Assembly (NCBI GenBank): GCA_028864975.1
Contig: JAGWLG010000012.1
Coordinates: 1 to 64,000 of the forward strand
DNA length: 64,000 bases
Source of the DNA: Thermoplasmata archaeon
GTDB lineage: Archaea > Thermoplasmatota > Thermoplasmata > Lutacidiplasmatales > UBA184
Direction: 5' to 3'
Positions 1 through 12,071 of the stretch are shown here, in pieces. The translations under genes and the position numbers were made by a program. Numbering within the stretch: the first letter of the stretch is position 1; each line of letters opens with the position of its first letter. The notes beneath the pieces were generated by a model. It was not told the DNA's origin and searched no databases. It saw nothing but the letters and a program-made list of their open reading frames with translations.

Positions 1-734
1 GCGGTCGTTGAGAGCGGGAAGAGCGGATCGATTCCGATGAGCCGCCATCGAAGCACCGTGGCGGTGACGGAGGAGACCCCCACCGGGAGAAGGCTCCTTG
101 GTCTCCACTCGAAGAGCAGAAGTTCGACGGCAACGAGGACCGCGGCCACGGGGGAATTGAAGGTGGCGGCCATCCCACCAGCCGCCCCAGCTACCAGGAG
201 CGTCTTGCGCTCGGCAGCCGAAAGATGGAGCGCCTGCCCGAACACCGATCCAAGAGACCCCCCGGTCATGATGATCGGGCCTTCCGCGCCGAAGGGCCCC
301 CCCGACCCGATCGCGATTGCAGCCGAGAGGGGTTTCAGGAGTGTCATCCTCGGTTCGATGCGGCTCTTGCGAACGAGGATGGATTCGAGGGCTTCTGGGA
401 TACCATGGCCCCGAATCTTATCGGAACCAAAGCGGGCCATGAGACCCACGATCAGGCCACCAATCACGGGGACCCCGACTGCGAGGAAGCCCAGGGAACT
501 TCCGGACGGGGAGACAAATCGGAAAGAAATCCTCTGGTAGTAGAACAGGTTCGTGAAGAACCCGATGAGGTCGAGTAAGACCAAGGCGGCGATCGCGGCC
601 AGCAGCCCTGTGACCACCGCGAGGAGCGAGAGGTAGACGGTCCGACGATCTACCGTGGTGAAATCCCCGAGATCGCGAAAGCGACGGACCTGACCCGTGA
701 CCGAAAGCGGTCCCGAGCTACGGCCCTGTCGCAT
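1..734 (-). CDS. ClC-family chloride channel/antiporter (3' end runs off the window)
   Basis: Manual translation from ATG at 734 (MRQGRSS...) gives hydrophobic helices with GHGIPEA, IGSGGPFGAEGP and GMAATFNSP, which match the ClC GSGIP/GREGP/FNAP motifs. It is absent from the ORF track because there is no stop in the window. Confidence 0.9.
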   Translation of the reverse strand, partial: MRQGRSSGPLSVTGQVRRFRDLGDFTTVDRRTVYLSLLAVVTGLLAAIAALVLLDLIGFFTNLFYYQRISFRFVSPSGSSLGFLAVGVPVIGGLIVGLMARFGSDKIRGHGIPEALESILVRKSRIEPRMTLLKPLSAAIAIGSGGPFGAEGPIIMTGGSLGSVFGQALHLSAAERKTLLVAGAAGGMAATFNSPVAAVLVAVELLLFEWRPRSLLPVGVSSVTATVLRWRLIGIDPLFPLSTT

Positions 735-777
735 GGTGGATCCGTCTCCGGAACCTCACCCCGTTTTCTGCTGGACC

Positions 778-789
778 CGAAACGTCTAG
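778..789. repeat. 12-bp motif CGAAACGTCTAG, reverse-complement copy at 1169-1180
   Basis: Exact 12-bp match in opposite orientation in the two intergenic gaps flanking the CDGSH gene. Confidence 0.5.
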
Positions 790-889
790 ATGGAACGTCG
801 TTCTATGAGGGCGCTCGGAGTTGGTAGGGTCCGAGCGGCAAGGCGGGGCGGCGCTGACCGGCACCGTTAGAGCCGCCCCAACCGAGGGA

Positions 890-1123
890 CTACTTGGGGT
901 GGAGCTTTTCCTTCGGGGTGGGGAACATGTCTTCGATGGAGACTCGGTTGCGGTTCTCATCGTAGACGTAGAGCTTCCCTGCCTCCTCGCCCTTCGTCTT
1001 CGAGTGGCTCCCGTCGCAGAACGGCTTGTTCCGGCTCAAGCCGCACTGACAGACCGCGACGGTTTGCCCTCCGATCTCGATCAGCGCAGGTCCCGTTGCA
1101 TCGTGGCGAATGAGGCGCGACAT
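890..1123 (-). CDS. CDGSH iron-sulfur domain protein (2Fe-2S)
   Basis: [16 protein letters not shown] matches the C-x-C-x2-S-x3-P-x-CDGSH signature. Confidence 0.92.
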
Positions 1124-1210
1124 GGTTCACCGAGGAGAGCCATCTGCCCGAATCCCATCTCGGTAGCGCTAGACGTTTCGAGCACTCGTGCTTCGGGGCT
1201 CGACCGCACC

Positions 1211-1237
1211 GGTCTCCCCGCTCCCGCGAGGGAGACC
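1211..1237 (+). promoter_or_regulatory. SD-sequestering hairpin, copy 1
   Basis: GGTCTCCC (1211-1218) pairs perfectly with GGGAGACC (1230-1237), which contains the GGAG site and ends one base before ATG 1238. Confidence 0.6.
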
Positions 1238-1299
1238 ATGCGCTCCAAGAGCCGCCTGAAACCCAGCGCCAACCGCCCCGCGCCGAACGAACACCCCCA
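1222..1299 (+). repeat. Dispersed degenerate direct repeat, copy 1 (copy 2 at 3671-3731)
   Basis: Shared blocks CCGCGAGG, ATGCGCTCCAAG, ACCGCCCCGCG and ACGAACACCCCCA occur in the same order in both copies. Confidence 0.8.
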
Positions 1300-1552
1300 A
1301 GACGACTCGTGGGTCGACCAAGTGGCCGACGAGATCCAGGCCCTGCTCGCCGAGCATGGCCTCGAGCTCGAGCTGGTCGTCTTCTACGACAACCAGACCG
1401 AGATCTTGCACGCGACGGGTCTTGACGGAAGTCCCGCCAGATACTTCCGGTCGCTCGAGTCGGAGGGAGGGACAGGTTCCTCGGGGGCGACCAAGGGAGC
1501 AGAACCGGTCGATCTCCCTCCCAGGCGAGGCTCGTTCACGCCGTCCGCGTAA
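1238..1552 (+). CDS. Hypothetical protein (104 aa, starts MRSK)
   Basis: ATG preceded by GGGAG. The core WVDQVADEIQALLAEHGLELELVVFY looks like a genuine alpha/beta segment. Start trimmed from ORF 821..1552. Confidence 0.5.
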   Translation: MRSKSRLKPSANRPAPNEHPQDDSWVDQVADEIQALLAEHGLELELVVFYDNQTEILHATGLDGSPARYFRSLESEGGTGSSGATKGAEPVDLPPRRGSFTPSA

Positions 1553-1600
1553 GCCTGCGGACAGTCTCCTCCGGCCCGCGTATTCTCTTGGGAGGTGCGC

Positions 1601-1840
1601 ATGGCAAAGCCGCGGGCCGGCGAGTTCCGAAATGATCCAGGGGGAAAGGGTTGGTTCGCGGTCCCCCGGGCGGTGGACGAGTTCCTGTCACCGAGCGGCC
1701 GTGCCTGCGTCCCTGTTCACTTCGTGTTCGTGGGGACCCGCGTGTTCCTGCTCATGGGCCTCCTACGATGGTGCCTAAGTACCACGCATGCTCCGAGGGC
1801 CGAGAGCGCTCCCTCCAGCCCGGAGACAGTTCTTCCATGA
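1601..1840 (+). CDS. Hypothetical protein (79 aa)
   Basis: GGAGGT 5 nt upstream of ATG 1601. The stop overlaps the cupin start (ATGA). Confidence 0.4.
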   Translation: MAKPRAGEFRNDPGGKGWFAVPRAVDEFLSPSGRACVPVHFVFVGTRVFLLMGLLRWCLSTTHAPRAESAPSSPETVLP

Positions 1841-2211
1841 AGCGACCCGCCGGTCTGACCCCCGACCTAATCGCCCTTTATGCCGACAGCCCGGACGAGG
1901 GGGTCTGCTGGAGCGAGAAGACGGCCGACCTCAATGTGAACCTCGTGGCTTGGTCCCCCTCCCATGGTGTCGATCCCCACGTCAACGAGGCGTGCGACGT
2001 CCTATTGGTGGGGCTGCATGGTCGGGGCCGAGTGGAAATCGATGCCAATCCACATCCCGTGCTGACTGGCTCCGTTATACTGATACCGCGGGGCTCGACC
2101 CGGGCGATCATCGCTGAGACAAGAATGCTCTACCTGACGTCTCACGTCCGCCAGCCCGAGACGTTCGACGTCGACCTCCCTGGAGTCAAGACCCGAGGCT
2201 CACTTCGGTGA
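1837..2211 (+). CDS. Cupin domain protein
   Basis: PHVNEACDVLLVGLHGRGRVEI...GSVILIPRGSTRAI resembles cupin motifs 1 and 2. ATG 1837 is coupled to the upstream stop. Confidence 0.8.
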   Translation: MKRPAGLTPDLIALYADSPDEGVCWSEKTADLNVNLVAWSPSHGVDPHVNEACDVLLVGLHGRGRVEIDANPHPVLTGSVILIPRGSTRAIIAETRMLYLTSHVRQPETFDVDLPGVKTRGSLR

Positions 2212-2223
2212 CCTTGCCTAGGT

Positions 2224-3495
2224 CTACTTCCTTCCGCTCCAGCGGCCCTGAGCTTCTCGGATCTTCTCAAGACGGACCCCGGGGAGCGGGTTCAAGCTCG
2301 GATACAGCACTGGAAGAGTCCCGATGCACCACGAGACAGAGGTTCCCAGGAGCAGGATCCCCCCGATGAGAAGGGCGATCGAGGAGATCCTACCTAGGTC
2401 GACCCACCCCGCGGCCAGGCAGGCAACCGAGGCCACCCACGCCACCGACATGGTCCACAGCATCTTTCGGGTCCACTCGTGGGACACCCTCTGGAAGGGA
2501 GCGATCATCCCGAACCACATGATCAGAATCGTCAAGCCGAGGAAGCCGAGGACGTTCAATGCGGCATGGGTCTGGTAGGGCATGTAGTTGGAGGTCGAGA
2601 CCATCCACAAGCCGATCCCACCCCCCACGAGGAGGATGACGACACCGGTCAGGTGAAGCCCGAGCTGCGGACGCGGGGTCTTCGCCCTCACACCGAGAAT
2701 GACCAAGCTCAAGGCTAGCAACGCGGCGAAAAGCCCCTCGGGGGCCGCCAGGATGGGTAGGGTCAGCATCCCGAGCCACCCGGGTGCCAGCATCCCTAGG
2801 GGGACGAGAATACTGCCGACCGCTCCGGAAGCAGCGATCGCTCCCACGAGGAAACGAGGGGGATCCGCCGCCACGGAGCGCGGGACCATCCGAAGGCTCA
2901 CGGCGGCCACGAGCAGGGTGGCATGGCCCAGGACGAAGAGGTGGACCCCGGCGATCCACCAACCGAAGCCCGGACCGTTCGAGCATGCCGATAGGAAGAA
3001 GAGCGCGGACGCCGCCAGAGGAGACGCCCACGCCAGCAGGAAGAGCGGTAGCGAGACCACGTCGCCTGGTCGATGGCTCGGTCCTGAGGTTTGAAGCACG
3101 GGCCGGCGGAGGGCCACGACAAATCGAGCGAGTTCGATCCCGACAGCCGCTCCGAGGAGGACAGACGCGACGGCGAAGCTCGTGCTGAAGGGCACACCGA
3201 GCCCGGGTTCGGCGAGAGAAAATGTCCCCAAACCGATGCAACCGGTGAGGAGGGCCGGAGGAAGCGGGTCCAGAATGCGGCCGGGTAGCACTCGGCGCGA
3301 GATCGAAGGGAAGAGGTGGAGGGAGAATCCCAGGGTCGTCGCCTGGACGAACCCGATCAGGAGGAGCCAGAGCAGTGGGTCCCACGTGTTGGGGGGGCCG
3401 CGGCCGACGGCACTCAACGTGAGAAGGACCCCAGCAAAGGAGAGGGATGTGAGCCCCACCGTAAGGAAGGTACGCGATGAACCGGTAAGAGGCAC
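2224..3495 (-). CDS. Polytopic membrane protein with intramembrane histidines (NnrS/heme-copper-oxidase-subunit-I-like, tentative)
   Basis: About 12 hydrophobic segments, with His in SLHLFP, GVHLFVLGH, GLHLTG and THAALNVLGF. The family call is by resemblance only. Confidence 0.65.
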   Translation of the reverse strand: MPLTGSSRTFLTVGLTSLSFAGVLLTLSAVGRGPPNTWDPLLWLLLIGFVQATTLGFSLHLFPSISRRVLPGRILDPLPPALLTGCIGLGTFSLAEPGLGVPFSTSFAVASVLLGAAVGIELARFVVALRRPVLQTSGPSHRPGDVVSLPLFLLAWASPLAASALFFLSACSNGPGFGWWIAGVHLFVLGHATLLVAAVSLRMVPRSVAADPPRFLVGAIAASGAVGSILVPLGMLAPGWLGMLTLPILAAPEGLFAALLALSLVILGVRAKTPRPQLGLHLTGVVILLVGGGIGLWMVSTSNYMPYQTHAALNVLGFLGLTILIMWFGMIAPFQRVSHEWTRKMLWTMSVAWVASVACLAAGWVDLGRISSIALLIGGILLLGTSVSWCIGTLPVLYPSLNPLPGVRLEKIREAQGRWSGRK

Positions 3496-3617
3496 GTAGG
3501 GCGATCAGGAACGGGCGTGGAAGAGCGTTGCCCTCCCTCTCGTGTCGGACGCTGCCGATCCGACAGGTTACCCTGTGTGAGCGTCGACGACTGTAGTCTG
3601 GCTTCCCTCGACTCTGC

Positions 3618-3624
3618 TTTATTT
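3618..3624 (+). promoter_or_regulatory. Candidate TATA box (TTTATTT) for the 3686/3742 unit
   Basis: AT-rich heptamer in GC-rich DNA, about 30 nt upstream of the hairpin at 3657. Confidence 0.4.
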
Positions 3625-3656
3625 GACCCGAGTAACGCTCCCGCTGGTATCGCGCC

Positions 3657-3685
3657 CTTCTCACCTCTCTCCGCGAGGTGAGAAG
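3657..3685 (+). promoter_or_regulatory. SD-sequestering hairpin, copy 2
   Basis: CTTCTCACCT (3657-3666) pairs perfectly with AGGTGAGAAG (3676-3685), covering most of GAGGTGA and ending one base before ATG 3686. Confidence 0.65.
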
Positions 3686-3745
3686 ATGCGCTCCAAGCGT
3701 ACCCCAGACCGCCCCGCGACGAACACCCCCACGGAGGCTCAGTGA
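3686..3745 (+). CDS. 19-aa upstream ORF MRSKRTPDRPATNTPTEAQ
   Basis: Strong SD (GAGGTGA) and ATG. Its TGA overlaps the GTG of the next gene (GTGA). Not in the ORF track because it is too short. Confidence 0.45.
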   Translation: MRSKRTPDRPATNTPTEAQ

Positions 3746-4053
3746 AGCTCCGGACCGTGACCGGGAACCGCTACCCGGTGAAGTGCGCCTGCGCCGCCAA
3801 CTGCGGGACCACCATCCCCGCCGGGGAGGCTGTCCGTGTCGTGATCGACATGGACACATACCGCCCTCGGAAGAGCTACATCCCGGACCACAGCCCCGAC
3901 GCGGGGAAGTGGAAGGGCAACGGCTCGGCCGCCAACCCCGCCCCCTCCAACGGGGGCAACGGTCACGCGGCGGGGTTCACCCCAGCGAGCGCCCTTCCGG
4001 TACCCCCGCCAAAGGCACCCGAGCCTCCGACGCTGCCTTTCGGACCCGGGTGA
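3742..4053 (+). CDS. Hypothetical Cys-rich protein (CxCxxxC...H), possible Zn binder, Pro-rich C-terminus
   Basis: GGAGG SD upstream of GTG. KCACAANCG and a distal PDH. Confidence 0.55.
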   Translation: MKLRTVTGNRYPVKCACAANCGTTIPAGEAVRVVIDMDTYRPRKSYIPDHSPDAGKWKGNGSAANPAPSNGGNGHAAGFTPASALPVPPPKAPEPPTLPFGPG

Positions 4054-4126
4054 AGGGAGTTTGAAGCCTGGGGTTAGCGGATTCCTCGAGGAACTTCGTC
4101 GGCGAGGGGTTTCGCTCGACTATCGA

Positions 4127-4157
4127 CGCTCATCAACGAGCAGGTAGTTGATGAGCG
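4127..4157. other. Perfect 11-bp stem-loop between convergent transcription units
   Basis: CGCTCATCAAC / 9-nt loop / GTTGATGAGCG. There is no U-tract, so a terminator role is not established. Confidence 0.5.
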
Positions 4158-4196
4158 AGCAATACGAATAACGGCCAGCGTTTACGATAATCGTAA

Positions 4197-4305
4197 TGGG
4201 GCTGCCCGAATTTGAATCGGGGTCGCGTGGTCCCAAACCACGCAGGATGGACCATTGTAGCGTCACCAGGGGGAAGACCCCTGGACGAAACTACCCCACA
4301 GCCCC
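4197..4305 (-). tRNA. tRNA-Pro (UGG), intron-containing, CCA not encoded
   Basis: Acceptor GGGGCTG/CAGCCCC plus discriminator A. Anticodon arm CGTGG-TTTGGGA-CCACG. T arm CCCGA-TTCAAAT-TCGGG. Mature length is 75 nt after removing a 34-nt D-loop insert. Confidence 0.95.
4255..4288 (-). other. 34-nt tRNA intron in the D-loop (about position 17/17a)
   Basis: GTAG/CTAC 4-bp central helix, TTT and AAT bulges, intronic helices CGTC/GACG and CCAGGGG/CCCCTGG. Cutting after the second bulge nucleotide restores AGTTTGGTCCA. Confidence 0.85.
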
Positions 4306-4445
4306 ATGCCCATGCGGGCACCGCCGTCCGCCCTTGAACCTTCCCTGGACCTTGGCCCGCACCGACGTTGAGGGTGCTTCCCGAGCCCGGGCTTTCCACA
4401 CAAGCAGAACGCTTCTCTAGGACCCGATCATACCGAGAGACCAAC

Positions 4446-4703
4446 ATGGGTTCAGAAGAGCGGACGTCGCGAGACGAAGGGGACGGGCGCGGCGCGTTAG
4501 GTCGCCCAGAGGTCCTGGGTTCGTTCGAACACGCGGGGACCGGCACCGTCCACATCGTCATGACCGATCGTCGCACGCTGTGCGGCGCGCGGACGGGAGC
4601 GATGGACCTTCGGGGGAACGACGACTGGTACGTCCGAGAAGAAGATGCCCCGGTGAGTTGCCTTCGATGTCAGGGCCTTGCCCTCAAGAGCCCCCGGATC
4701 TGA
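4446..4703 (+). CDS. Small putative zinc-binding protein (H-x9-C...CxxC)
   Basis: TVHIV...TLCG...VSCLRC. ATG 4446 trimmed from ORF 4368..4703. Confidence 0.6.
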   Translation: MGSEERTSRDEGDGRGALGRPEVLGSFEHAGTGTVHIVMTDRRTLCGARTGAMDLRGNDDWYVREEDAPVSCLRCQGLALKSPRI

Positions 4704-4801
4704 GCGTCCAGTACTCCTCCATCCACCGATAGTGGGACCCGTCCGATCTGACCGCGCTTCCGCGCACGCTCTCCTCGAATGGGGGGGGCTGGCCGTCGGG
4801 T

Positions 4802-5212
4802 CTATGAGATCTCAAACTCGTTGCCGTCGGGGTCCCGGAAGACCGCCATCTTCCCCCAGCCGGTGTCCGTCAGCTCTTGGACGAGCTCCACGCCCCGCGC
4901 CTTGAGTTCACGATAGGCATGTTCCACATCTCTTGGCGTGCTTGCGGGGAGGAAGACCCCTGGTGCAATCTCGGTCCTCCGGGTCTCTCCACACCGGAAC
5001 CAAATCCCCGTCCTCCCCCCGGGGCTGTCCCCCTGCCAGTCGTCGCCCTCTCCACAGAGGTGGATCAGGGGAAGCGAGGACCCCGGGGGACGCAGGAACA
5101 CCAAGTGACGCTCCCTCGCGACCACTTCGAAACCCAACTTCTCGCAGTACCAGTCGGCAGCCTTTCTTGCGTCTCGAACGAGGACCGCGACCGAGCCCAC
5201 TCCAGACAGCAT
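4802..5212 (-). CDS. VOC/glyoxalase family protein
   Basis: VAVLVRDARKAADWYCEKLGF at the N-terminus and WGKMAVFRDPDGNEFEI at the C-terminus. Confidence 0.88.
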   Translation of the reverse strand: MLSGVGSVAVLVRDARKAADWYCEKLGFEVVARERHLVFLRPPGSSLPLIHLCGEGDDWQGDSPGGRTGIWFRCGETRRTEIAPGVFLPASTPRDVEHAYRELKARGVELVQELTDTGWGKMAVFRDPDGNEFEIS

Positions 5213-5348
5213 GAGCAGAACGAGTCGACCACCCTCTAAGAACCCTGCGAACACCACCGGTCACCCATTGGAAGTGCCCTTCGGGTCATGGTCAGGTTCG
5301 TGAGAGTTTCCGACAGTTGGCGTTCCACTCGAGTCGAGCGCGTCCGTG

Positions 5349-5777
5349 TCAGACCGCCTCGACGCGCTTGAGATTGCGGCCGATGAGACAGGTCGCCTTG
5401 GCGGGGTCGACCCGAAGGATCCTGAACTTGCTCTTCGCGGAGAGCGATGGTCCCGCGCACGCGTCCCAGTTCGGACAGTCCAGGCGCGCACACTCGAAGC
5501 GGCCGGACTCCACGGTCGAGCCCTCGATCGCCGCCCCCGCCTCGACCAGGAGCGCACGGGGGGCCGGAGCGACGTCCACGACGCTCGCTTCGACCTCCTG
5601 CAGGGCACAGGGGTGAGCGACCGGACGGACGCTCTGGACCTGGTACCGGTGACCGGGTTCGAGGGTGAGGCACGCGTTCCGATAGGGGCACGGACGGCAG
5701 GGGGGAGCCCCTCCCTGATAGAAGAACGTGAACCCTGGGCGGGCCTGGCCGCGGGCGATCATGGTGATCTCGGGCAT
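5349..5777 (-). CDS. UPF0179 family protein
   Basis: Cys pattern CRPCPYRNAC...HPC...C...C..C...C. Coupled (TGATG) downstream of egsA, a typical archaeal context. Confidence 0.85.
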   Translation of the reverse strand: MPEITMIARGQARPGFTFFYQGGAPPCRPCPYRNACLTLEPGHRYQVQSVRPVAHPCALQEVEASVVDVAPAPRALLVEAGAAIEGSTVESGRFECARLDCPNWDACAGPSLSAKSKFRILRVDPAKATCLIGRNLKRVEAV

Positions 5778-6895
5778 CAGATCACTTCCGTCTGGCTCGC
5801 GAGCCGCTCCGCCGCCTCCCGTGAGAGGCCGTTGTCCCCGAGGATGGTGTAACGCTCGGGGCGGAGCGTGTGGGCGTTCACGAGGGCGGTCAGCACCTCG
5901 TCGCGTTCGACGTTCGCCTCGTGCGCGGTCGTGGGCGCCCCGATCTCTTTGAGGGAGACCCGGAGGCTCTTCCAGTCGGCGTTGTGAAGGTAGGCCATCA
6001 TGATGGTCCCCAGGCCGACGACCTCACCGTGCAGCGCACGGCCGGGGGCGATGCGCTCGAGAGCGTGGGCGAACAGATGCTCCGAGCCCGATGAAGGCCG
6101 GGAAGAGCCTGCCATGCTCATCGCGATCCCGCTCATGATGATCGGACGGATCGCGATCCAGACGCTCTCCTCTTTGCCGGGGCGGATGTCGCGGGCATGG
6201 TCGAGGATCCCGTGGGCAGCGTACTCTGCCAGGGCGGCCGAGCTCGAAGCGAAGTCCTCGTTGCGCAGACGGTGCGCAAGCTGCCAGTCGAGGACCGCGG
6301 TCACGTTCGAGATCACGTCCGCGCATCCGGCCGCAAGGTAGCGGTAGGGTGCCCGTACGAGTACCGAGGTGTCGGCGACGATGGCCTCGGGGACCGCGGC
6401 TTCGATGGAGAAGGCCTCACGCGACCCCTTGAGCGATGCGCGCGGAGAGGAGATCCCATCGTGGGCCGCCGAAGTGGGAACCGAGATGAACGGGATCCGC
6501 TGACGAGCAGCAACGGTCTTCGCGAGGTCGATCTTGCTACCTCCACCGACCCCCACCAAGAACCGTATCCCCTGCTGTTCGACCTCGGAAGCGATCCGAG
6601 CGACCTCGTCCAGGGTGGCGTCCCCTGCGGGGATGATCCGGACCTTGAGCCCGGAGCTCTCCAAGAGGTGCCCTACGCGGTCGCCCGCGATGGCCTGCGT
6701 CGTCGGGCCTGTGATGACGGCCCCAGGACCCACGAACCCTAGTGTCTGGCAAATCTTGGGAAGTTCTTCGAGCACCCCGTGACCCGCGAGGACGGTGCGG
6801 GGGAAGTTCATCGTCCGGACCTTGTGGAAGTCCTCCAGAGGACCGCCTGCGGCGGTCGCCGCGGCCCGGAGCGGACTTGCTCCGCCAGTAACCAT
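5777..6895 (-). CDS. egsA: NAD(P)-dependent sn-glycerol-1-phosphate dehydrogenase
   Basis: GVGGGSKIDLAK, VPTSAAHDGISS, SSRPSSGSEHLFAHAL, ALHGEVVG, RPERYTIL. Confidence 0.95.
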   Translation of the reverse strand: MVTGGASPLRAAATAAGGPLEDFHKVRTMNFPRTVLAGHGVLEELPKICQTLGFVGPGAVITGPTTQAIAGDRVGHLLESSGLKVRIIPAGDATLDEVARIASEVEQQGIRFLVGVGGGSKIDLAKTVAARQRIPFISVPTSAAHDGISSPRASLKGSREAFSIEAAVPEAIVADTSVLVRAPYRYLAAGCADVISNVTAVLDWQLAHRLRNEDFASSSAALAEYAAHGILDHARDIRPGKEESVWIAIRPIIMSGIAMSMAGSSRPSSGSEHLFAHALERIAPGRALHGEVVGLGTIMMAYLHNADWKSLRVSLKEIGAPTTAHEANVERDEVLTALVNAHTLRPERYTILGDNGLSREAAERLASQTEVI

Positions 6896-7009
6896 TAGAC
6901 TCGAGGCAGGACGGCCCTCTAAAGAAGGTGACGGGGGCTGCCCGTGAAATGCGGGCTGCTCCGAAGGGGTCCCCGCGCTCTGTGCAGGGAAGCCGACCGG
7001 AGATAGTGG

Positions 7010-10000
7010 TTACCTTCTACCACCGAACGGGTCAGGAGCCCGCTCGTCCTGCCCCGGACCCATAGGCTGGAGCGGGGCGACCGGGGCGGGAGCTGGACCG
7101 GGTGGTCCTGCCATCGGAGCGGGCTCGTAGGTCATCGCGGGGCCCGGCGTTGAAGCGGCCGCGTCCTCCTCATGGTGGTGGCGCGGCCCACGCTTGACCG
7201 CGAGCGCGATCAACAGAGCGGCCACCAGTACCACGACGATGAGGAGCAGGAAGGTGTCGGTCCACGAAAGCCCGAAGGGTCCCACATTGGGAGAGGGGGG
7301 CGGGGGAGGCGCACCGGTGACGGTGATCGTGATGCCCGCGGAGGCGGTGTGCCCCGGGCTCGCGCTGTCCGTTGCGGTCACGGTCACCGTGAAGCTCCCG
7401 GCAGACTGATACGTGTGGGAGACCGCGAGGCCGGACCCCGCCGCCGAGCCGTCCCCAAAGTTCCAGGAGTAGGTGTAGGGGGCGGTGCCTCCTGAGGCCG
7501 CCGCGGCAAAGTTGACCGACAACGGCGCGGCTCCAGACTGCGGCGCTGAGGTGATGGCCACCGACATCCCCGCGGAGGTCTGAGGGCTCACGTCGACCCC
7601 GAACTGCTTGCTGTAGTGCCCGCTCGCGGAGTCGTTCACGAATAGGGTGATCGTGTACTGTCCCAGAGCGGAGTAGATGTGCGACGGAGGGTTTCCCCCC
7701 GAAGTCGAGGCAGAGCCATCGCCCCACGTCCAAGCGATCGCGTAGGGGGAGGTCCCACCCGTCCCGGCACCTTGGCAAGCGACGTTCAGTGGGAGGTAGC
7801 CCGTCAGGGGGGTGCACGACCCTTGCCCTGAGAGCGGAGTGCCCGTCGTCCCTGTGACGTTGATCCCATGTCCCCTGATCAAGAGTGTGTGCTGGGGGGA
7901 GGCGCTGTCGGTAACATACAACGTTGGGAAGTATGGGCCCCCGGCGGTCGAGTAGGTGTAGGTGAAGCTCGGGTTCGCCCCGGACGTCGTCTGAGAAGCG
8001 CTGCCGTCCCCGAAGTTCCACACGTCGGTGTAGGGGCCGGTCCCGCCATTAACCGAGCCCGTGAACGACACTGAGAGGGGTGATGCCCCTGAGTTTGCTG
8101 ACTGAACGAAGGACGCCTGCAGCGGGACTGGTCCTGTGGTGACGCTGATAGCCGCGGTCTTGGTCTGGACCGTCGCCGGCCCGTTGGTCACCGTGACCGT
8201 CAGGGTCTCCGCTCCGGCCGCTGTCCCCCCGGTGAACCACGTGTCGGTGCTGTAGCCTGAGGCTGAGGTCACGTTGACCGACCCTTCCGTGCTCGAAGAG
8301 AGGGACCAAGTGTAATGGGTGTTGGTATAGAGCGGATTGCCGTACTGGTCGAGCCCCGTCGCGATGAAGGGCGAGGTGTCCAGGGTCCCCGTCGCAACGG
8401 TCGCCGTGGGAGGCGTCAGGGTCGCGCTTGTGAGGACCGGTGGCGGGAGCGAGCCCTTAACCACCTGCAGCCACGTGCACGAGGTGACCGTGTTCGGGGT
8501 GGGGCTCCCGTAGGTTACATTGAGGCAAACCGTAACGTTCCCTGGCTGCGGCCCGTTCGAATAAGCGACCGCAGTTCCCGAGGTCTTGTTCAGATTCCCC
8601 ACCAGGTTGAGAGCGTTCCATGCGAACGTGGCGGACGGTGGCCAGACCAAGCTCCCAGTGGAGGAGGTCGCCGTCGCGTTGAAGTAGACCACTTTGTTCA
8701 CGAGGGCTGTCGCCGTGGGGCTGGGTGTAACCGAGACGGTCGAGAGGGTGACCGTCGAGGTCACGGTGATGGCCGCGCAGGCCAGTAAGGTCACAGAGTT
8801 GTAGGTCGCGTTCTCACAGATGTGGCCGCCCCCAGCTGAGGACGGGGCGGTGTAAGTGACGCTCGAGCCGGTGCTCGGCGAGACGGAGCCAATAGAAGGG
8901 TTGGACCAGGCCCACGTGGCTCCCGTGATCGGGTTGCCGGAGGCATCGAGGGCGTTCGCCGTCAGGGAAACGGTACCACTAGTTTGGGAGGTGATCGGAC
9001 TGGGCGAGATCGCGGTCGACGTGAGCGTTTGTGCGCCCGTTCCCGTGTTGCACGGGACGCGGGGGTCATGGCACCGCCAGACCGGCTCCAAGGGGTTCCC
9101 CTCGGCCAGCTGGTCGTTCTGCTGCATCGGGAAGGTGGTGATCGCACCGATCGAGCTGCTGAAGCTCGTCGGGTTGACGTTCATTTCGACACGTTCCATG
9201 ACCGCCAAAACGTTGGAGGTGTTGAACGTCTGATGGACGATGTTCCCGCAGGTCCCGCTCGTGAGCCCACAGGAGGAGGGGTTGGGGTTGCCCGTCTTCA
9301 TCACGCTCGGGTCGGCGATCAGGACGAAGGGGAACCGGCGCCCGTTGTTGATGTGGTCGCCGCCGTTCTGACCGTTCTGCGTGTCATCCTGCGCCACGGC
9401 AATGACCGTGCTCTTCGCCCAGGCCGAGTTGTTCTCGATCGCGTTCACGACCAAGTTCATCGATTGGTCGTTCCACTGGATGCACTGGGCATCCGTGAAC
9501 GCGGAGCCGCAGGACGAACCGGGGTGGTCATCGAATAGCTCGACGAAGGAGTAGGTGGGGAGCCCGTAGTCGCTTAGGAAGCTGATGTACGAGTAGGCGG
9601 ACCACTGGTCCAAGAGAGGGGACTGAGCGTTGCAGGTATACTGACAGTCCCAGAGCATCTCGGGGATGCCAGTAGCAGGGTTGGTGGTGGGGGGGATGGC
9701 GCTCACGGACGAACCGTTGGTCCAGAATCCGTTCGAACCTGTACAGGAGGTGTATTCCACGGCCTTGCTGTTGCCGGGGAGGCTGCCCGGGATGCCGCCC
9801 GTCCGAGCGACGGAGCAAGAGGCCCCGCTCAACATCCACATCCAGTCCTCCTCCGAGAGGAAGGGGATCGGTCCGCCAGACTGCTTCACATTAGCACCAG
9901 TGAATCGGTCGAAGATGGTCCCGTCGGGCGGGTAGGTCTGGGACCCACTGTTAGGGGAGAACGAGCACGATCCTTTGACGACGTTCGAGGAGTTGTAGAC

Positions 10001-10519
10001 CCCCCACTCTGTCCCGGACCCGGTCCCTTGGACACTGCTCGCGCAGCTGTCGCTGCCTCCGTTCACATCTGCGGAAATGAGGTAGGCGTGGGCCTGGGTG
10101 GAGTAGGGATCAATGGAGGAATACATGTTGTCGAAGACCGTCCCCTTTTGCCCCCAAGAGTGGAGGAACGGGGTGTCAGTTACGTGGGACCCGCTGGCCC
10201 CTCCGTTGTACCCTCCGGCGGTGTAGTCCGCGCCATAGTTGCAGGTTTTGTTGATCGTGGAGTGACAGTCGCCGAGGTAATCGTCGAAGACGTGGTTCTC
10301 GCGCACGATGTAGACGAAGTGGGTGAGGTTGCTCGGGAAGAGCGGGAGCCCGCTGACCAGGGGTGTCAGGTCGGCGGGTGCGGTTCCCCTTCCGGGTGCA
10401 GCGGCCAATGCGACGTCAGGAGCAGAAGTCCCCTGGGCCGACCCCGCGAACGCGGAGGTCAGCATCACGAAGGCGACGATTACCGCAAGGCCAGCCCAGA
10501 GTCGCAGGGGAATCCTCAT
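7010..10519 (-). CDS. Membrane-anchored secreted phosphoesterase (AcpA/PLC-like) with Ig-like and 3 PKD domains
   Basis: Signal peptide; IVRENHVFDDYLG; DDHPG; QDDTQNGQNGGDH; three WNFGDG/WTWGDG PKD motifs; C-terminal TM and Pro-rich tail. Confidence 0.85.
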   Translation of the reverse strand: MRIPLRLWAGLAVIVAFVMLTSAFAGSAQGTSAPDVALAAAPGRGTAPADLTPLVSGLPLFPSNLTHFVYIVRENHVFDDYLGDCHSTINKTCNYGADYTAGGYNGGASGSHVTDTPFLHSWGQKGTVFDNMYSSIDPYSTQAHAYLISADVNGGSDSCASSVQGTGSGTEWGVYNSSNVVKGSCSFSPNSGSQTYPPDGTIFDRFTGANVKQSGGPIPFLSEEDWMWMLSGASCSVARTGGIPGSLPGNSKAVEYTSCTGSNGFWTNGSSVSAIPPTTNPATGIPEMLWDCQYTCNAQSPLLDQWSAYSYISFLSDYGLPTYSFVELFDDHPGSSCGSAFTDAQCIQWNDQSMNLVVNAIENNSAWAKSTVIAVAQDDTQNGQNGGDHINNGRRFPFVLIADPSVMKTGNPNPSSCGLTSGTCGNIVHQTFNTSNVLAVMERVEMNVNPTSFSSSIGAITTFPMQQNDQLAEGNPLEPVWRCHDPRVPCNTGTGAQTLTSTAISPSPITSQTSGTVSLTANALDASGNPITGATWAWSNPSIGSVSPSTGSSVTYTAPSSAGGGHICENATYNSVTLLACAAITVTSTVTLSTVSVTPSPTATALVNKVVYFNATATSSTGSLVWPPSATFAWNALNLVGNLNKTSGTAVAYSNGPQPGNVTVCLNVTYGSPTPNTVTSCTWLQVVKGSLPPPVLTSATLTPPTATVATGTLDTSPFIATGLDQYGNPLYTNTHYTWSLSSSTEGSVNVTSASGYSTDTWFTGGTAAGAETLTVTVTNGPATVQTKTAAISVTTGPVPLQASFVQSANSGASPLSVSFTGSVNGGTGPYTDVWNFGDGSASQTTSGANPSFTYTYSTAGGPYFPTLYVTDSASPQHTLLIRGHGINVTGTTGTPLSGQGSCTPLTGYLPLNVACQGAGTGGTSPYAIAWTWGDGSASTSGGNPPSHIYSALGQYTITLFVNDSASGHYSKQFGVDVSPQTSAGMSVAITSAPQSGAAPLSVNFAAAASGGTAPYTYSWNFGDGSAAGSGLAVSHTYQSAGSFTVTVTATDSASPGHTASAGITITVTGAPPPPPSPNVGPFGLSWTDTFLLLIVVVLVAALLIALAVKRGPRHHHEEDAAASTPGPAMTYEPAPMAGPPGPAPAPVAPLQPMGPGQDERAPDPFGGRR

Positions 10520-10557
10520 GAAGGACCTCACCAGACAGTGCGCCGATTTTTCCCGTC

Positions 10558-10565
10558 ATATATAA
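10558..10565 (-). promoter_or_regulatory. TATA box (TTATATAT) of the phosphoesterase gene
   Basis: Canonical archaeal TATA about 40 nt upstream of ATG 10519. Confidence 0.6.
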
Positions 10566-10709
10566 CTGAGGTCTGAGGCGAGACAACACCGGTGCCGGTT
10601 TATGATAGGCCCGGGCGATTTTCGGTCCGAAGACCGTCAGGAGGACCCGGGGAATCAAGGCAAGGGCGGGTCCCGGGCGGTGGTTCGCTCCCTGAAAGCC
10701 CTCTTAGGA

Positions 10710-12071
10710 TCATCTCGCGTTAACGAACCGCTTTCGCGAACGATAGCGCCCGCGTCCTTTCATCGCGCGATGCTCGCGATGCTCCGGCTCGGTCCGTTCC
10801 CCGTCAGGCTTTCGGCGGCGGGGGGACAGCAGGACGAAGAAGGCCGACGCGGCCAAGAGCCCCGCGACGGCCGAGAGCGCGATCACGCTCACCAGCGCCC
10901 AGTTCGTCCCCGTGGCGCCACAGAGGCCCTGACCGTCGACCCCCGGAACGTCCGCGGACGACAGGCCCGCGTCGGTGGTGTACCACATGACCCCATCGCC
11001 CGACGCCACTCCCCAGGTGGTGTTGTAGAAGGAGAACGAGTAGATCTCTGGTATCTGGGGGACACCTTCCTCCACCCAACAGCTGCCCGCATCCGAAGTG
11101 TAGAACAGGTTGGCGTCCTCCGCTCCGACCCAGCCGTATCTTCCCTGCTCGACGAACAGAGCATGCGACCGCTGACCCGAGGTCAGTTGGGTGCCCGACC
11201 AGTTCGTCCCGTCGGAGCTCTCGAACAGCATGTCCTTCACCCCGAGCATCCAAGCGCTCGTGGGCCCGAGGGCGGCGATCGCGCTCGAGACGGTCCCCTG
11301 GCCTCCAGTGACGCCCGCCTCCCACGTCGCGCCCCCGTCCGAGGTGTAATACACCTGCCCGGGCGAAGGTCCGCCCTCGATCCACCCATGATCGGGGTCG
11401 AAGAACGCCACGCTCCGGAGCTGGTCCCCCACCGGCGACGCGACCCCGGACCAGGTGTTGCCGCGATCTCGGCTGGTGAAGAGACCCTGAGAGGTCCCCG
11501 CGTAGGCGAACCATGAATCGGCGAGATCCGGGAAGGCAAGTGTGGTGATGTTGCCGCTGAGTCCGGCCACTTGGAGGATCGACCATGAGAGTCCCTGGTC
11601 GAGGGAGCGCAGCACCACGCCCGAGTTGCCGGCCGCCCAGAGGGTTCCCGAGGGGTCTCGGGCGAGGGTCAGGAGGCTGGTGGAAGCGACAGGGTCGGGG
11701 ACCGACCCCCAGCTACGTCCTCCGTCGGTCGACCGGAGGATCGTGGCCTGGTAACCCACCGCCACAAGGACCTTTGCAGAGACATAGGTCACGGAAGAGA
11801 GTACGGTCTGCGCAGAGCTGACGTTCGTCGGGACCTGCGCGAAGGTCCAACCACAGCTCGAGCTGTTGCAGAAAGGCACGGCCGCATCGGCGGTGGCGGG
11901 AGCCGGCGAAAGAACGAAGATCACCGCGAGGAGCATCGCGAGGGCCAGGGACCTCCGGGCTCCCCTCGGCTCCGCGGGCCGAGAGCTGGCAGGGCGCCAC
12001 AGGTGCGGGGACCCATGGACCCGACAGGAAGGAAGAGGTAGGATCGGCTGATCCCTTGTCTTCCCCACCAT
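10710..12071 (-). CDS. Membrane-anchored BNR/YCF48-like beta-propeller protein
   Basis: Repeated S-x-D-x-G-x-[ST]-W Asp boxes (STDGGRSW, SLDQGLSW, SRDRGNTW, TSDGGATW), a signal-like hydrophobic segment and a C-terminal TM. Start trimmed to ATG 12071 with GGAG upstream. Confidence 0.8.
   Translation of the reverse strand: MVGKTRDQPILPLPSCRVHGSPHLWRPASSRPAEPRGARRSLALAMLLAVIFVLSPAPATADAAVPFCNSSSCGWTFAQVPTNVSSAQTVLSSVTYVSAKVLVAVGYQATILRSTDGGRSWGSVPDPVASTSLLTLARDPSGTLWAAGNSGVVLRSLDQGLSWSILQVAGLSGNITTLAFPDLADSWFAYAGTSQGLFTSRDRGNTWSGVASPVGDQLRSVAFFDPDHGWIEGGPSPGQVYYTSDGGATWEAGVTGGQGTVSSAIAALGPTSAWMLGVKDMLFESSDGTNWSGTQLTSGQRSHALFVEQGRYGWVGAEDANLFYTSDAGSCWVEEGVPQIPEIYSFSFYNTTWGVASGDGVMWYTTDAGLSSADVPGVDGQGLCGATGTNWALVSVIALSAVAGLLAASAFFVLLSPRRRKPDGERTEPEHREHRAMKGRGRYRSRKRFVNAR

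Follow-up and report, generated by a model that had tools for sequence, protein, structure and literature searches.

Two small open reading frames (ORFs) in the genome of a Thermoplasmata archaeon begin directly behind a stable hairpin whose 3' arm carries the Shine-Dalgarno (SD) sequence. The stretch of DNA studied here (64,000 nucleotides, referred to below as the window) represents contig C44 of the assembly G000, which consists of 3.6 Mb in 124 contigs and has a G+C content of 67%. Both hairpins belong to a family of selected structures that take in the SD and the AUG start codon, covary in their arms and stand at a fixed position relative to the start; NTGA stop/start overlaps connect genes behind them, and at many loci a gene lies immediately upstream. 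As the best reading of these observations we tentatively propose a translational lock with coupling, in which the hairpin would repress initiation at the gene that it precedes and ribosomes arriving from upstream would relieve this repression.

Hairpins at the start codons

Copy 1 of the hairpin (positions 1206..1241; all window features given here are on the plus strand) folds with about -21.6 to -28 kcal/mol (z -3.7 to -5.4). Its inner helix pairs 1211-1218 with 1230-1237 and can take up three extra pairs (1219-1221 with 1226-1228); in the simple reading as an 8-bp stem, the loop has 11 nt. The ATG follows at 1238, and an outer helix (1206-1208 with 1239-1241) covers the UG of the AUG and the next base. 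Copy 2 (3652..3691; about -18.9 to -27.3 kcal/mol, z -4.4 to -5.9) is built in the same way, with an inner helix of 3657-3665 paired with 3677-3685 (extended by RNAfold to 11 bp, 3657-3667 with 3675-3685), an ATG at 3686, and an outer helix (3652-3655 with 3688-3691) that includes the G of the AUG and the second codon. Folded without their flanks, copies 1 and 2 reach -21.8 kcal/mol (z -5.4) and -18.5 kcal/mol (z -5.9), respectively, values not matched by any of 200 dinucleotide shuffles. A perfect 8-bp hairpin with a loop of 3-16 nt ends at a given position of this genome with a frequency of 8e-4.

The SD core GAGG of copy 1 (1228..1231) is located 6 nt 5' of the ATG at the junction of the loop and the 3' arm. 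In copy 2, the match to the 3' end of 16S rRNA comprises seven bases (GAGGTGA, 3675..3681) and lies entirely within the 3' arm. The original prediction, made from the letters of this stretch alone, had stated that a hairpin buries the SD immediately 5' of the start, and this is the case in both copies; its coordinates, sequence, two compensatory pairs and one inserted pair also proved correct on re-reading. What it had overlooked was the outer helix, the many more copies, and both the 19-codon size of the second ORF and the overlap of this ORF with the next gene.

Further copies were found with covariance models. Such a model was needed because generic hairpins swamp a crude pattern scan: when the genome was scanned for GA|GG hairpins of any kind whose loop is rich in pyrimidines, no tie to start codons appeared (24/85 vs 68/266). 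Model R1, built from six close copies, found many further matches across five genomes, and model R2 was then built from 20 matches. Copy 1 is the best match to both models (62.5 and 57.5 bits), and copy 2 matches R2 with 48.5 bits (E 6e-11). There are 16 R2 matches in this genome, whereas about 25 copies can be recognized by eye; a BLAST search of the genome with copy 1 gave further copies on contigs C66, C71, C88 and C8. Among 61 relatives scanned with R2, strong matches (E < 1e-4) are confined to seven genomes, all of which carry homologues of the gene behind copy 1 (family Y, described below); one further match in genome G028 was left out of every claim. The search of this genome and of other Thermoplasmata that the original prediction had proposed as a check thus returned additional covarying homologues.

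The arms of these hairpins covary strongly. In an alignment of 20 sequences, 96.9% of the cells are paired (78.6% in shuffles), with double changes at 6 of the 8 pairs (26 double-change cells); in an alignment of 29 sequences, 97.0% of the cells are paired, and double changes affect 6 of the 8 pairs as well (48 cells). The covariation scores are 0.495 for 20 sequences (0.13 when shuffled) and 0.574 for 29 sequences (0.135 when shuffled), measured on alignments that were fitted to the model, in which many copies are kin and three rows repeat palindromes already present, read from the opposite strand. None of 500 shuffles reached either value, and sliding of the partner reduced the scores to at most 0.09 and 0.07, respectively. 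Model-fitted alignments were used instead of RNAalifold on a MAFFT alignment of long leaders, which was rejected because stems of unequal length fell out of register. The structured cis element postulated originally is therefore borne out by covariation in 20-29 copies, by the fixed position at the start codon and by the SD core inside the structure.

The leaders of Y genes in this genome and its relatives differ in stem sequence; more than ten different stem sequences were counted in all, each ending at or inside the start codon. The stems are mostly perfect, 8-13 bp long and have energies of -17 to -25 kcal/mol at 37 °C. If the copies are re-read without gaps, GAGG is often paired with a CCUC just 5' of it, leaving a C-rich loop of 7 nt. 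Copies from other sources than this assembly provide independent support. The motif occurs 5' of a gene for a small membrane protein on two JGI metagenome contigs, whose copies differ by a compensatory G-C to U-A change, and two environmental Y loci have yet another stem sequence. A DNA pattern scan of metagenomes gave two good and two weak copies. In viral contigs, 115 pattern matches were reported and 80 of these loci were fetched; they contained no real copy of the motif (one weak, unrelated match of 26.5 bits). Rfam gave no match at E up to 0.1 in window positions 1-12000, and none at the paralogous leaders.

Some copies deviate from this pattern. In G000 C88 (L016:1633-1740) and G010 C71:15326-15369 (L060), the hairpin has no start codon at its 3' side; it is followed by a leader of ~75 nt and then by a gene with a GTG start. 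As two genera share this arrangement, mere decay of a copy does not explain it. Contig C66 (3362 bp) of the same assembly is ~90% identical to window positions 1-1828, including copy 1 and the gene behind it; this contig represents either a second strain binned into the metagenome-assembled genome or a recent duplication.

The organism uses SD-led initiation. The 3' end of its 16S rRNA reads ...GATCACCTCCT (the anti-SD was taken from the 16S gene), and among 389 genes whose ATG start is well defined, SD-like 4-mers show a threefold peak at -14 to -8; the GAGG of the motif falls within this range. Across the copies, the 3' arm holds GAGG and the spacer, and the AUG is part of the outer helix or of the arm itself. 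Over the region -45..+12, the minimum free energy of 25 motif genes is -26.1 ± 4.0 kcal/mol compared to -16.5 ± 4.9 kcal/mol for 388 other genes (Mann-Whitney p = 4e-13), and pairing probabilities are higher both for the AUG (0.74 vs 0.44) and for the SD region (0.74 vs 0.56); these figures are descriptive and no independent test, as the motif genes were picked by their motif. The gene starts used here are our own calls.

Genes and cassettes behind the hairpins

The gene behind copy 1, designated here as Y (104 codons, 1238..1552), encodes an orphan protein of small size, whose N-terminal tail is basic and disordered and whose core has a helix-strand-strand-helix arrangement. This genome contains about 11 paralogues, which share a conserved core of 55 residues. 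In the AF2 model (mean pLDDT 67), the core is predicted with a pLDDT of 82-88, and the first ~20 residues have low confidence; Foldseek found no PDB match for it at E ≤ 0.001. In a survey of 180 genomes of the same family, Y was present in seven, which belong to three genera and mostly have several copies. Its sequence clusters number 82 among 5.8 billion proteins, all of them "hypothetical", and a metagenome protein scan gave no match. Two Y genes, L015:599-1087 (G000 C71) and L010:3987-4391 (C92), have a partial internal duplication, with the N-terminal leader and the first core residues present twice per ORF.

Copy 2 precedes an ORF of only 19 codons plus stop (3686..3745), whose TGA overlaps the GTG start of the next gene (GTGA). 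The latter (103 codons, 3742..4053) is a short form of a family designated here as Z, and its product has an N-terminal zinc-ribbon-like domain and a Pro-rich tail. It shares 57% identity with residues 1-85 of the Z protein of C92 and does not have the C-terminal part of full-length Z proteins (at least 355 amino acids), which comprise a weak Zn_ribbon match, long Pro-rich linkers and a C-terminal domain. Corresponding arrangements exist elsewhere: the hairpin is followed by a 22-codon ORF with an ATGA overlap with Z at C17, by a 21-codon ORF with an ATGA overlap with Z in the Y tail at C8, and by 22 codons and ATGA in another genus (g7, genome G019). Judged by its sequence and position, the ORF of copy 2 is the leader mini-ORF of Z, which corrects its annotation as "orphan ORF 2". 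Nor are the two ORFs of the window unrelated, as had been assumed originally, since the start of the mini-ORF is homologous to the N-terminal leader of the Y family.

Where Y itself precedes Z, its stop codon overlaps the Z start as ATGA (C8 and C72). Altogether, NTGA overlaps at Y-Z or mini-ORF-Z junctions were read at base level at C8, C72 (twice), C17, in the window and in G019, and the gene calls give a 4-nt Y-Z overlap at C92 and on the environmental contigs L336 and L338. The usual order of the cassette is W, X, hairpin, Y, Z. W (about 135-145 amino acids) shows a weak helix-turn-helix signal of the winged type. For X (about 190-230 amino acids), the Atlas leads are DUF7509, DUF4062 and nucleoside-deoxyribosyltransferase/TIR-like proteins, which all score below 0.9 and are leads only; the Atlas look-up for Z gave nothing. 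Pfam, PHROGs and PADLOC contained no match for Y and none naming Z, W or X. At least nine copies of the W-X-Y-Z cassette were found, e.g., at G000 C8:26693-29213 and C92:27992-30457 and on C71, C88, C32, C97 and C98, and the context looks like that of a conflict system. At two W-X junctions (G000 C71:~1693 and C32:~77346), the predicted GTG start of X, called by us, also lies in the 3' arm of a stable hairpin (-25 and -30 kcal/mol), and this arm overlaps the C-terminal codons of W.

The motif is not limited to this cassette. It is present at the ATG of two Orc1/Cdc6-like genes (381-387 amino acids; G000 C92:22169-23332 and C110:32-1177), which may encode the replication initiators of integrated or plasmid-like elements; Cdc6_C exceeds the Pfam cut-off in one of them, and AAA_16 remains below the cut-off in both. 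It was also found 5' of several DUF932 genes, of a gene for a 138-amino acid zinc-ribbon protein and of other small ORFs. Neighbours of the motif loci include HicA-like and TnpB-like genes (judged from the N-terminal sequence alone), and the environmental Y loci are accompanied by genes for a DNA methylase, HEPN_AbiV, BubE/ThiF and a DUF87 ATPase. In the window, positions 1-4195 have no syntenic counterpart in sister genomes, whereas positions 4196-4309 are 95-96% identical across the genus and the genes past 5348 are conserved as well; both hairpin copies are thus located in a variable island. ARAGORN detected no tRNA in window positions 1-12000. According to these observations, the motif marks genes of mobile elements or defence islands, which form a lineage-restricted set with many copies. 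The suggestion that the element is the leader of a small mobile cassette gains support in this form, i.e., as a mark of patchily distributed island genes (Orc1/Cdc6-like, DUF932 and W-X-Y-Z) present in many copies.

The nucleotide blocks conserved downstream of the two window hairpins (1272..1299 in the leader part of Y and 3710..3724 in the mini-ORF) are real, as is the reading of the last block in different frames; alignment of both copies explains the latter as an indel of one 4-nt repeat unit (CGAA). The exact sequence ATGCGCTCCAAG occurs at two sites only in the window, both within these blocks. The block is homologous to the insertion site of a group II intron in paralogous genes and is intron-free in the mini-ORF. 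At C32, the intron splits Y (L011:2039-4100, corresponding to G000 C32:78038-80099) exactly 3' of the conserved block of the leader; the exons, when joined, align colinearly with paralogues that lack the interruption. It encodes an intact reverse transcriptase/maturase (RVT_1 and GIIM matches), and its domains V-VI match RF00029 with 43.4 bits (gathering threshold 40), the D1-D4 matches being sub-threshold. Two more insertions were found at contig ends, one connecting C97 to C93 in a mini-ORF-to-Z leader and one at C17, and G003 has an intron copy at the same site (L020). The conservation at the nucleotide rather than the protein level that had been invoked before is unneeded: a 4-nt slip in a poorly constrained leader suffices, and, in addition, the block serves the intron as homing site. 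The intron explains why this block drew notice as nucleotide-conserved and not why it is conserved.

The intron has a copy of the hairpin of its own. It is located with an ATG in the loop of domain VI, and in 4 of 4 cases the frame that starts at this ATG continues through the 3' splice site into the exon without a stop codon. This frame is homologous to the leader in front of Z at C8. The hairpin preceding the Y core in C32 and C17 was first taken as another stem type; as it lies inside the intron, it was removed from the set of Y leaders.

Proposed translational lock and alternative explanations

In the proposed lock, each element would act in the sense strand of the mRNA as a two-tier hairpin, with the inner helix pairing GAGG and the spacer and the outer helix pairing the AUG and the second codon. 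Free 30S subunits would be unable to start on a locked gene on their own. The lock would be common to Y, to the mini-ORF-to-Z unit and to the Orc1/Cdc6-like and DUF932 genes, all of them belonging to a lineage-restricted set of cassettes of mobile elements or defence islands. At loci organized as operons, ribosomes ending the upstream gene would open the stem; this "RNA unfolding" type of translational coupling, for which phage examples are known, is the best-documented model for such relief (PMC12548453). In the sequences analysed, a co-directional stop codon lies 0-17 nt 5' of the hairpin at 10 of 27 loci and once within the 3' arm. After translation of the leader ORF (Y or a mini-ORF of 19-22 codons), the ribosome would be passed on to Z via the NTGA stop/start.

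Several observations weigh against this proposal. About half of the copies, including both copies of the window and those of the Orc1/Cdc6-like genes, have no upstream co-directional ORF and therefore cannot be opened by ribosome traffic; the window copies would be nearly silent, or another opener would be needed. Judging from bacterial footprints, a ribosome that terminates at the usual distance of 15-17 nt from the inner helix probably fails to reach it and would touch the outer helix only. Furthermore, wobble pairs (5 G-U vs 6 C-A) show no preference for the sense strand, and a pure cis-acting lock does not call for the partial conservation seen in the loop, which is C-rich and has a core of 7 nt behind the CCUC:GAGG closing segment.

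The main rival, which we regard as possible and on balance unlikely, is a translational operator: the hairpin would be bound in trans by an RNA-binding protein of element or host origin, and the motif genes would form one post-transcriptional regulon. Such a protein could be a repressor that clamps the stem, in the manner of the MS2 coat protein at the replicase operator, or an activator that melts it, like Mu Com at mom. An operator would fit the free variation of the stems within a constant geometry and around a partly constant loop (C-rich, with GA before GG and, in the simple reading, 11 nt long), the presence of the motif 5' of unrelated genes without an upstream ORF, and the small zinc-ribbon proteins encoded by the cassettes. 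However, no protein was identified as a candidate binder, the conserved letters of the loop can be accounted for by the SD (GAGG) and its partner CCUC alone, and the loops differ considerably among the Y-type copies.

It is improbable that the hairpin is a structure of mRNA ends, i.e., a 5'-terminal stabiliser against 5'-3' exonucleases or a processing site in an X/Y polycistron. The stable, G+C-rich stems would suit this role and the intergenic spacers are short. The copy 2 hairpin may even form the very 5' end of its transcript: a TATA-like A/T-rich stretch (3617..3626), read by eye ~30 nt 5' of it, would put the transcript start a few nt 5' of the hairpin, if we infer correctly from the letters. 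This explanation leaves unexplained, however, why in every stem type the SD lies in the 3' arm, which abuts or includes the AUG, and why an outer helix extends over the AUG.

We see still less reason to regard the element as a palindrome acting in the DNA, either as the operator of the winged-helix protein W or as a site of recombination or a cassette boundary. In favour of this reading, the element forms an inverted repeat, paralogous loci become highly similar in nucleotide sequence from its 5' arm onwards, and the wobble count is free of strand bias. On the other hand, the arms covary rather than stay conserved and are always sense-oriented and locked to a start codon; no second copy of them exists near the W promoter or at any other site within 3 kb, and no recombinase is linked to the loci.

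Occlusion of the SD as output is shared by RNA thermometers, ligand riboswitches and antisense RNA targets, all of which we consider very improbable here. Antisense RNAs often target the mini-ORF-containing rep leaders of plasmids. However, when the strand opposite copy 1 was read by eye, no A/T-rich promoter-like stretch was seen. A thermometer or a ligand switch, both listed by the original prediction, is unlikely, as stems of -17 to -25 kcal/mol that are almost free of mismatches would not melt in a mesophile and a plain two-tier hairpin without an Rfam match offers no multi-helix pocket. That the hairpin has no function of its own and was carried along by recent duplication of the leader is hardly credible, even though several copies are close paralogues (C66 and C44:1-1828 are about 90% identical), because pairing was maintained through many double changes across genera and metagenomes.

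A more far-reaching version of the translational lock, in our opinion quite doubtful, would combine two assumptions: that one factor or signal unlocks ~25 otherwise silent genes (initiator, DUF932 and W-X-Y-Z genes) as an element-wide translational regulon, and that the copy captured in intron domain VI lets the interrupted gene be translated from the unspliced intron.

Comparison with known systems

Structured RNAs that regulate translation in cis are well known from bacteria and phages; in the literature searched, we found no report of a motif like this start-site hairpin from Archaea. As it is short, stereotyped and backed by covariation, the motif can serve as a marker for such elements in Thermoplasmata metagenomes. 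It is also a compact test case for the behaviour of archaeal ribosomes at occluded SD-led starts and in reinitiation at NTGA overlaps.

The layout of copy 2 has a counterpart in the leader-peptide control of plasmids. In tap-repA (IncFII) and repY-repZ (IncI/IncB), a structured leader contains an ORF of ~20-30 codons that overlaps the start of the main gene. Copy 2 of the window has exactly this layout, and the mobile-element context is shared. In contrast to these plasmids, neither an antisense RNA nor a pseudoknot was found here, and the Orc1/Cdc6-like genes carry the hairpin without a mini-ORF. RNA thermometers of the ROSE and fourU types likewise pair SD and AUG in a 5' hairpin, but they use weak, mismatch-rich helices, whereas the stems described here are near-perfect and very stable.

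Hairpins occluding the ribosome-binding site of coupled genes are known from phages, namely from genes VII/IX of f1 and from the coat-lysis junction of MS2 (reviewed in PMC12548453). As in these cases, a stable stem hides the downstream start, the upstream gene often ends just before or inside it, and NTGA overlaps would hand ribosomes on. The difference is that one stereotyped motif is reused here before many unrelated genes in an archaeal host, half of them without an upstream gene.

The translational operators of phages (MS2 coat/replicase, Mu Com/mom and T4 RegA, the last reviewed in PMC3014915) resemble the motif in that a hairpin with SD or AUG combines a free stem with constrained geometry and loop in mobile elements. 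Unlike for them, no binding protein was identified for the motif, and its stem is much longer and more stable than that of the MS2 operator. If a trans-acting opener exists, the motif would represent an archaeal counterpart of the phage translational operators.

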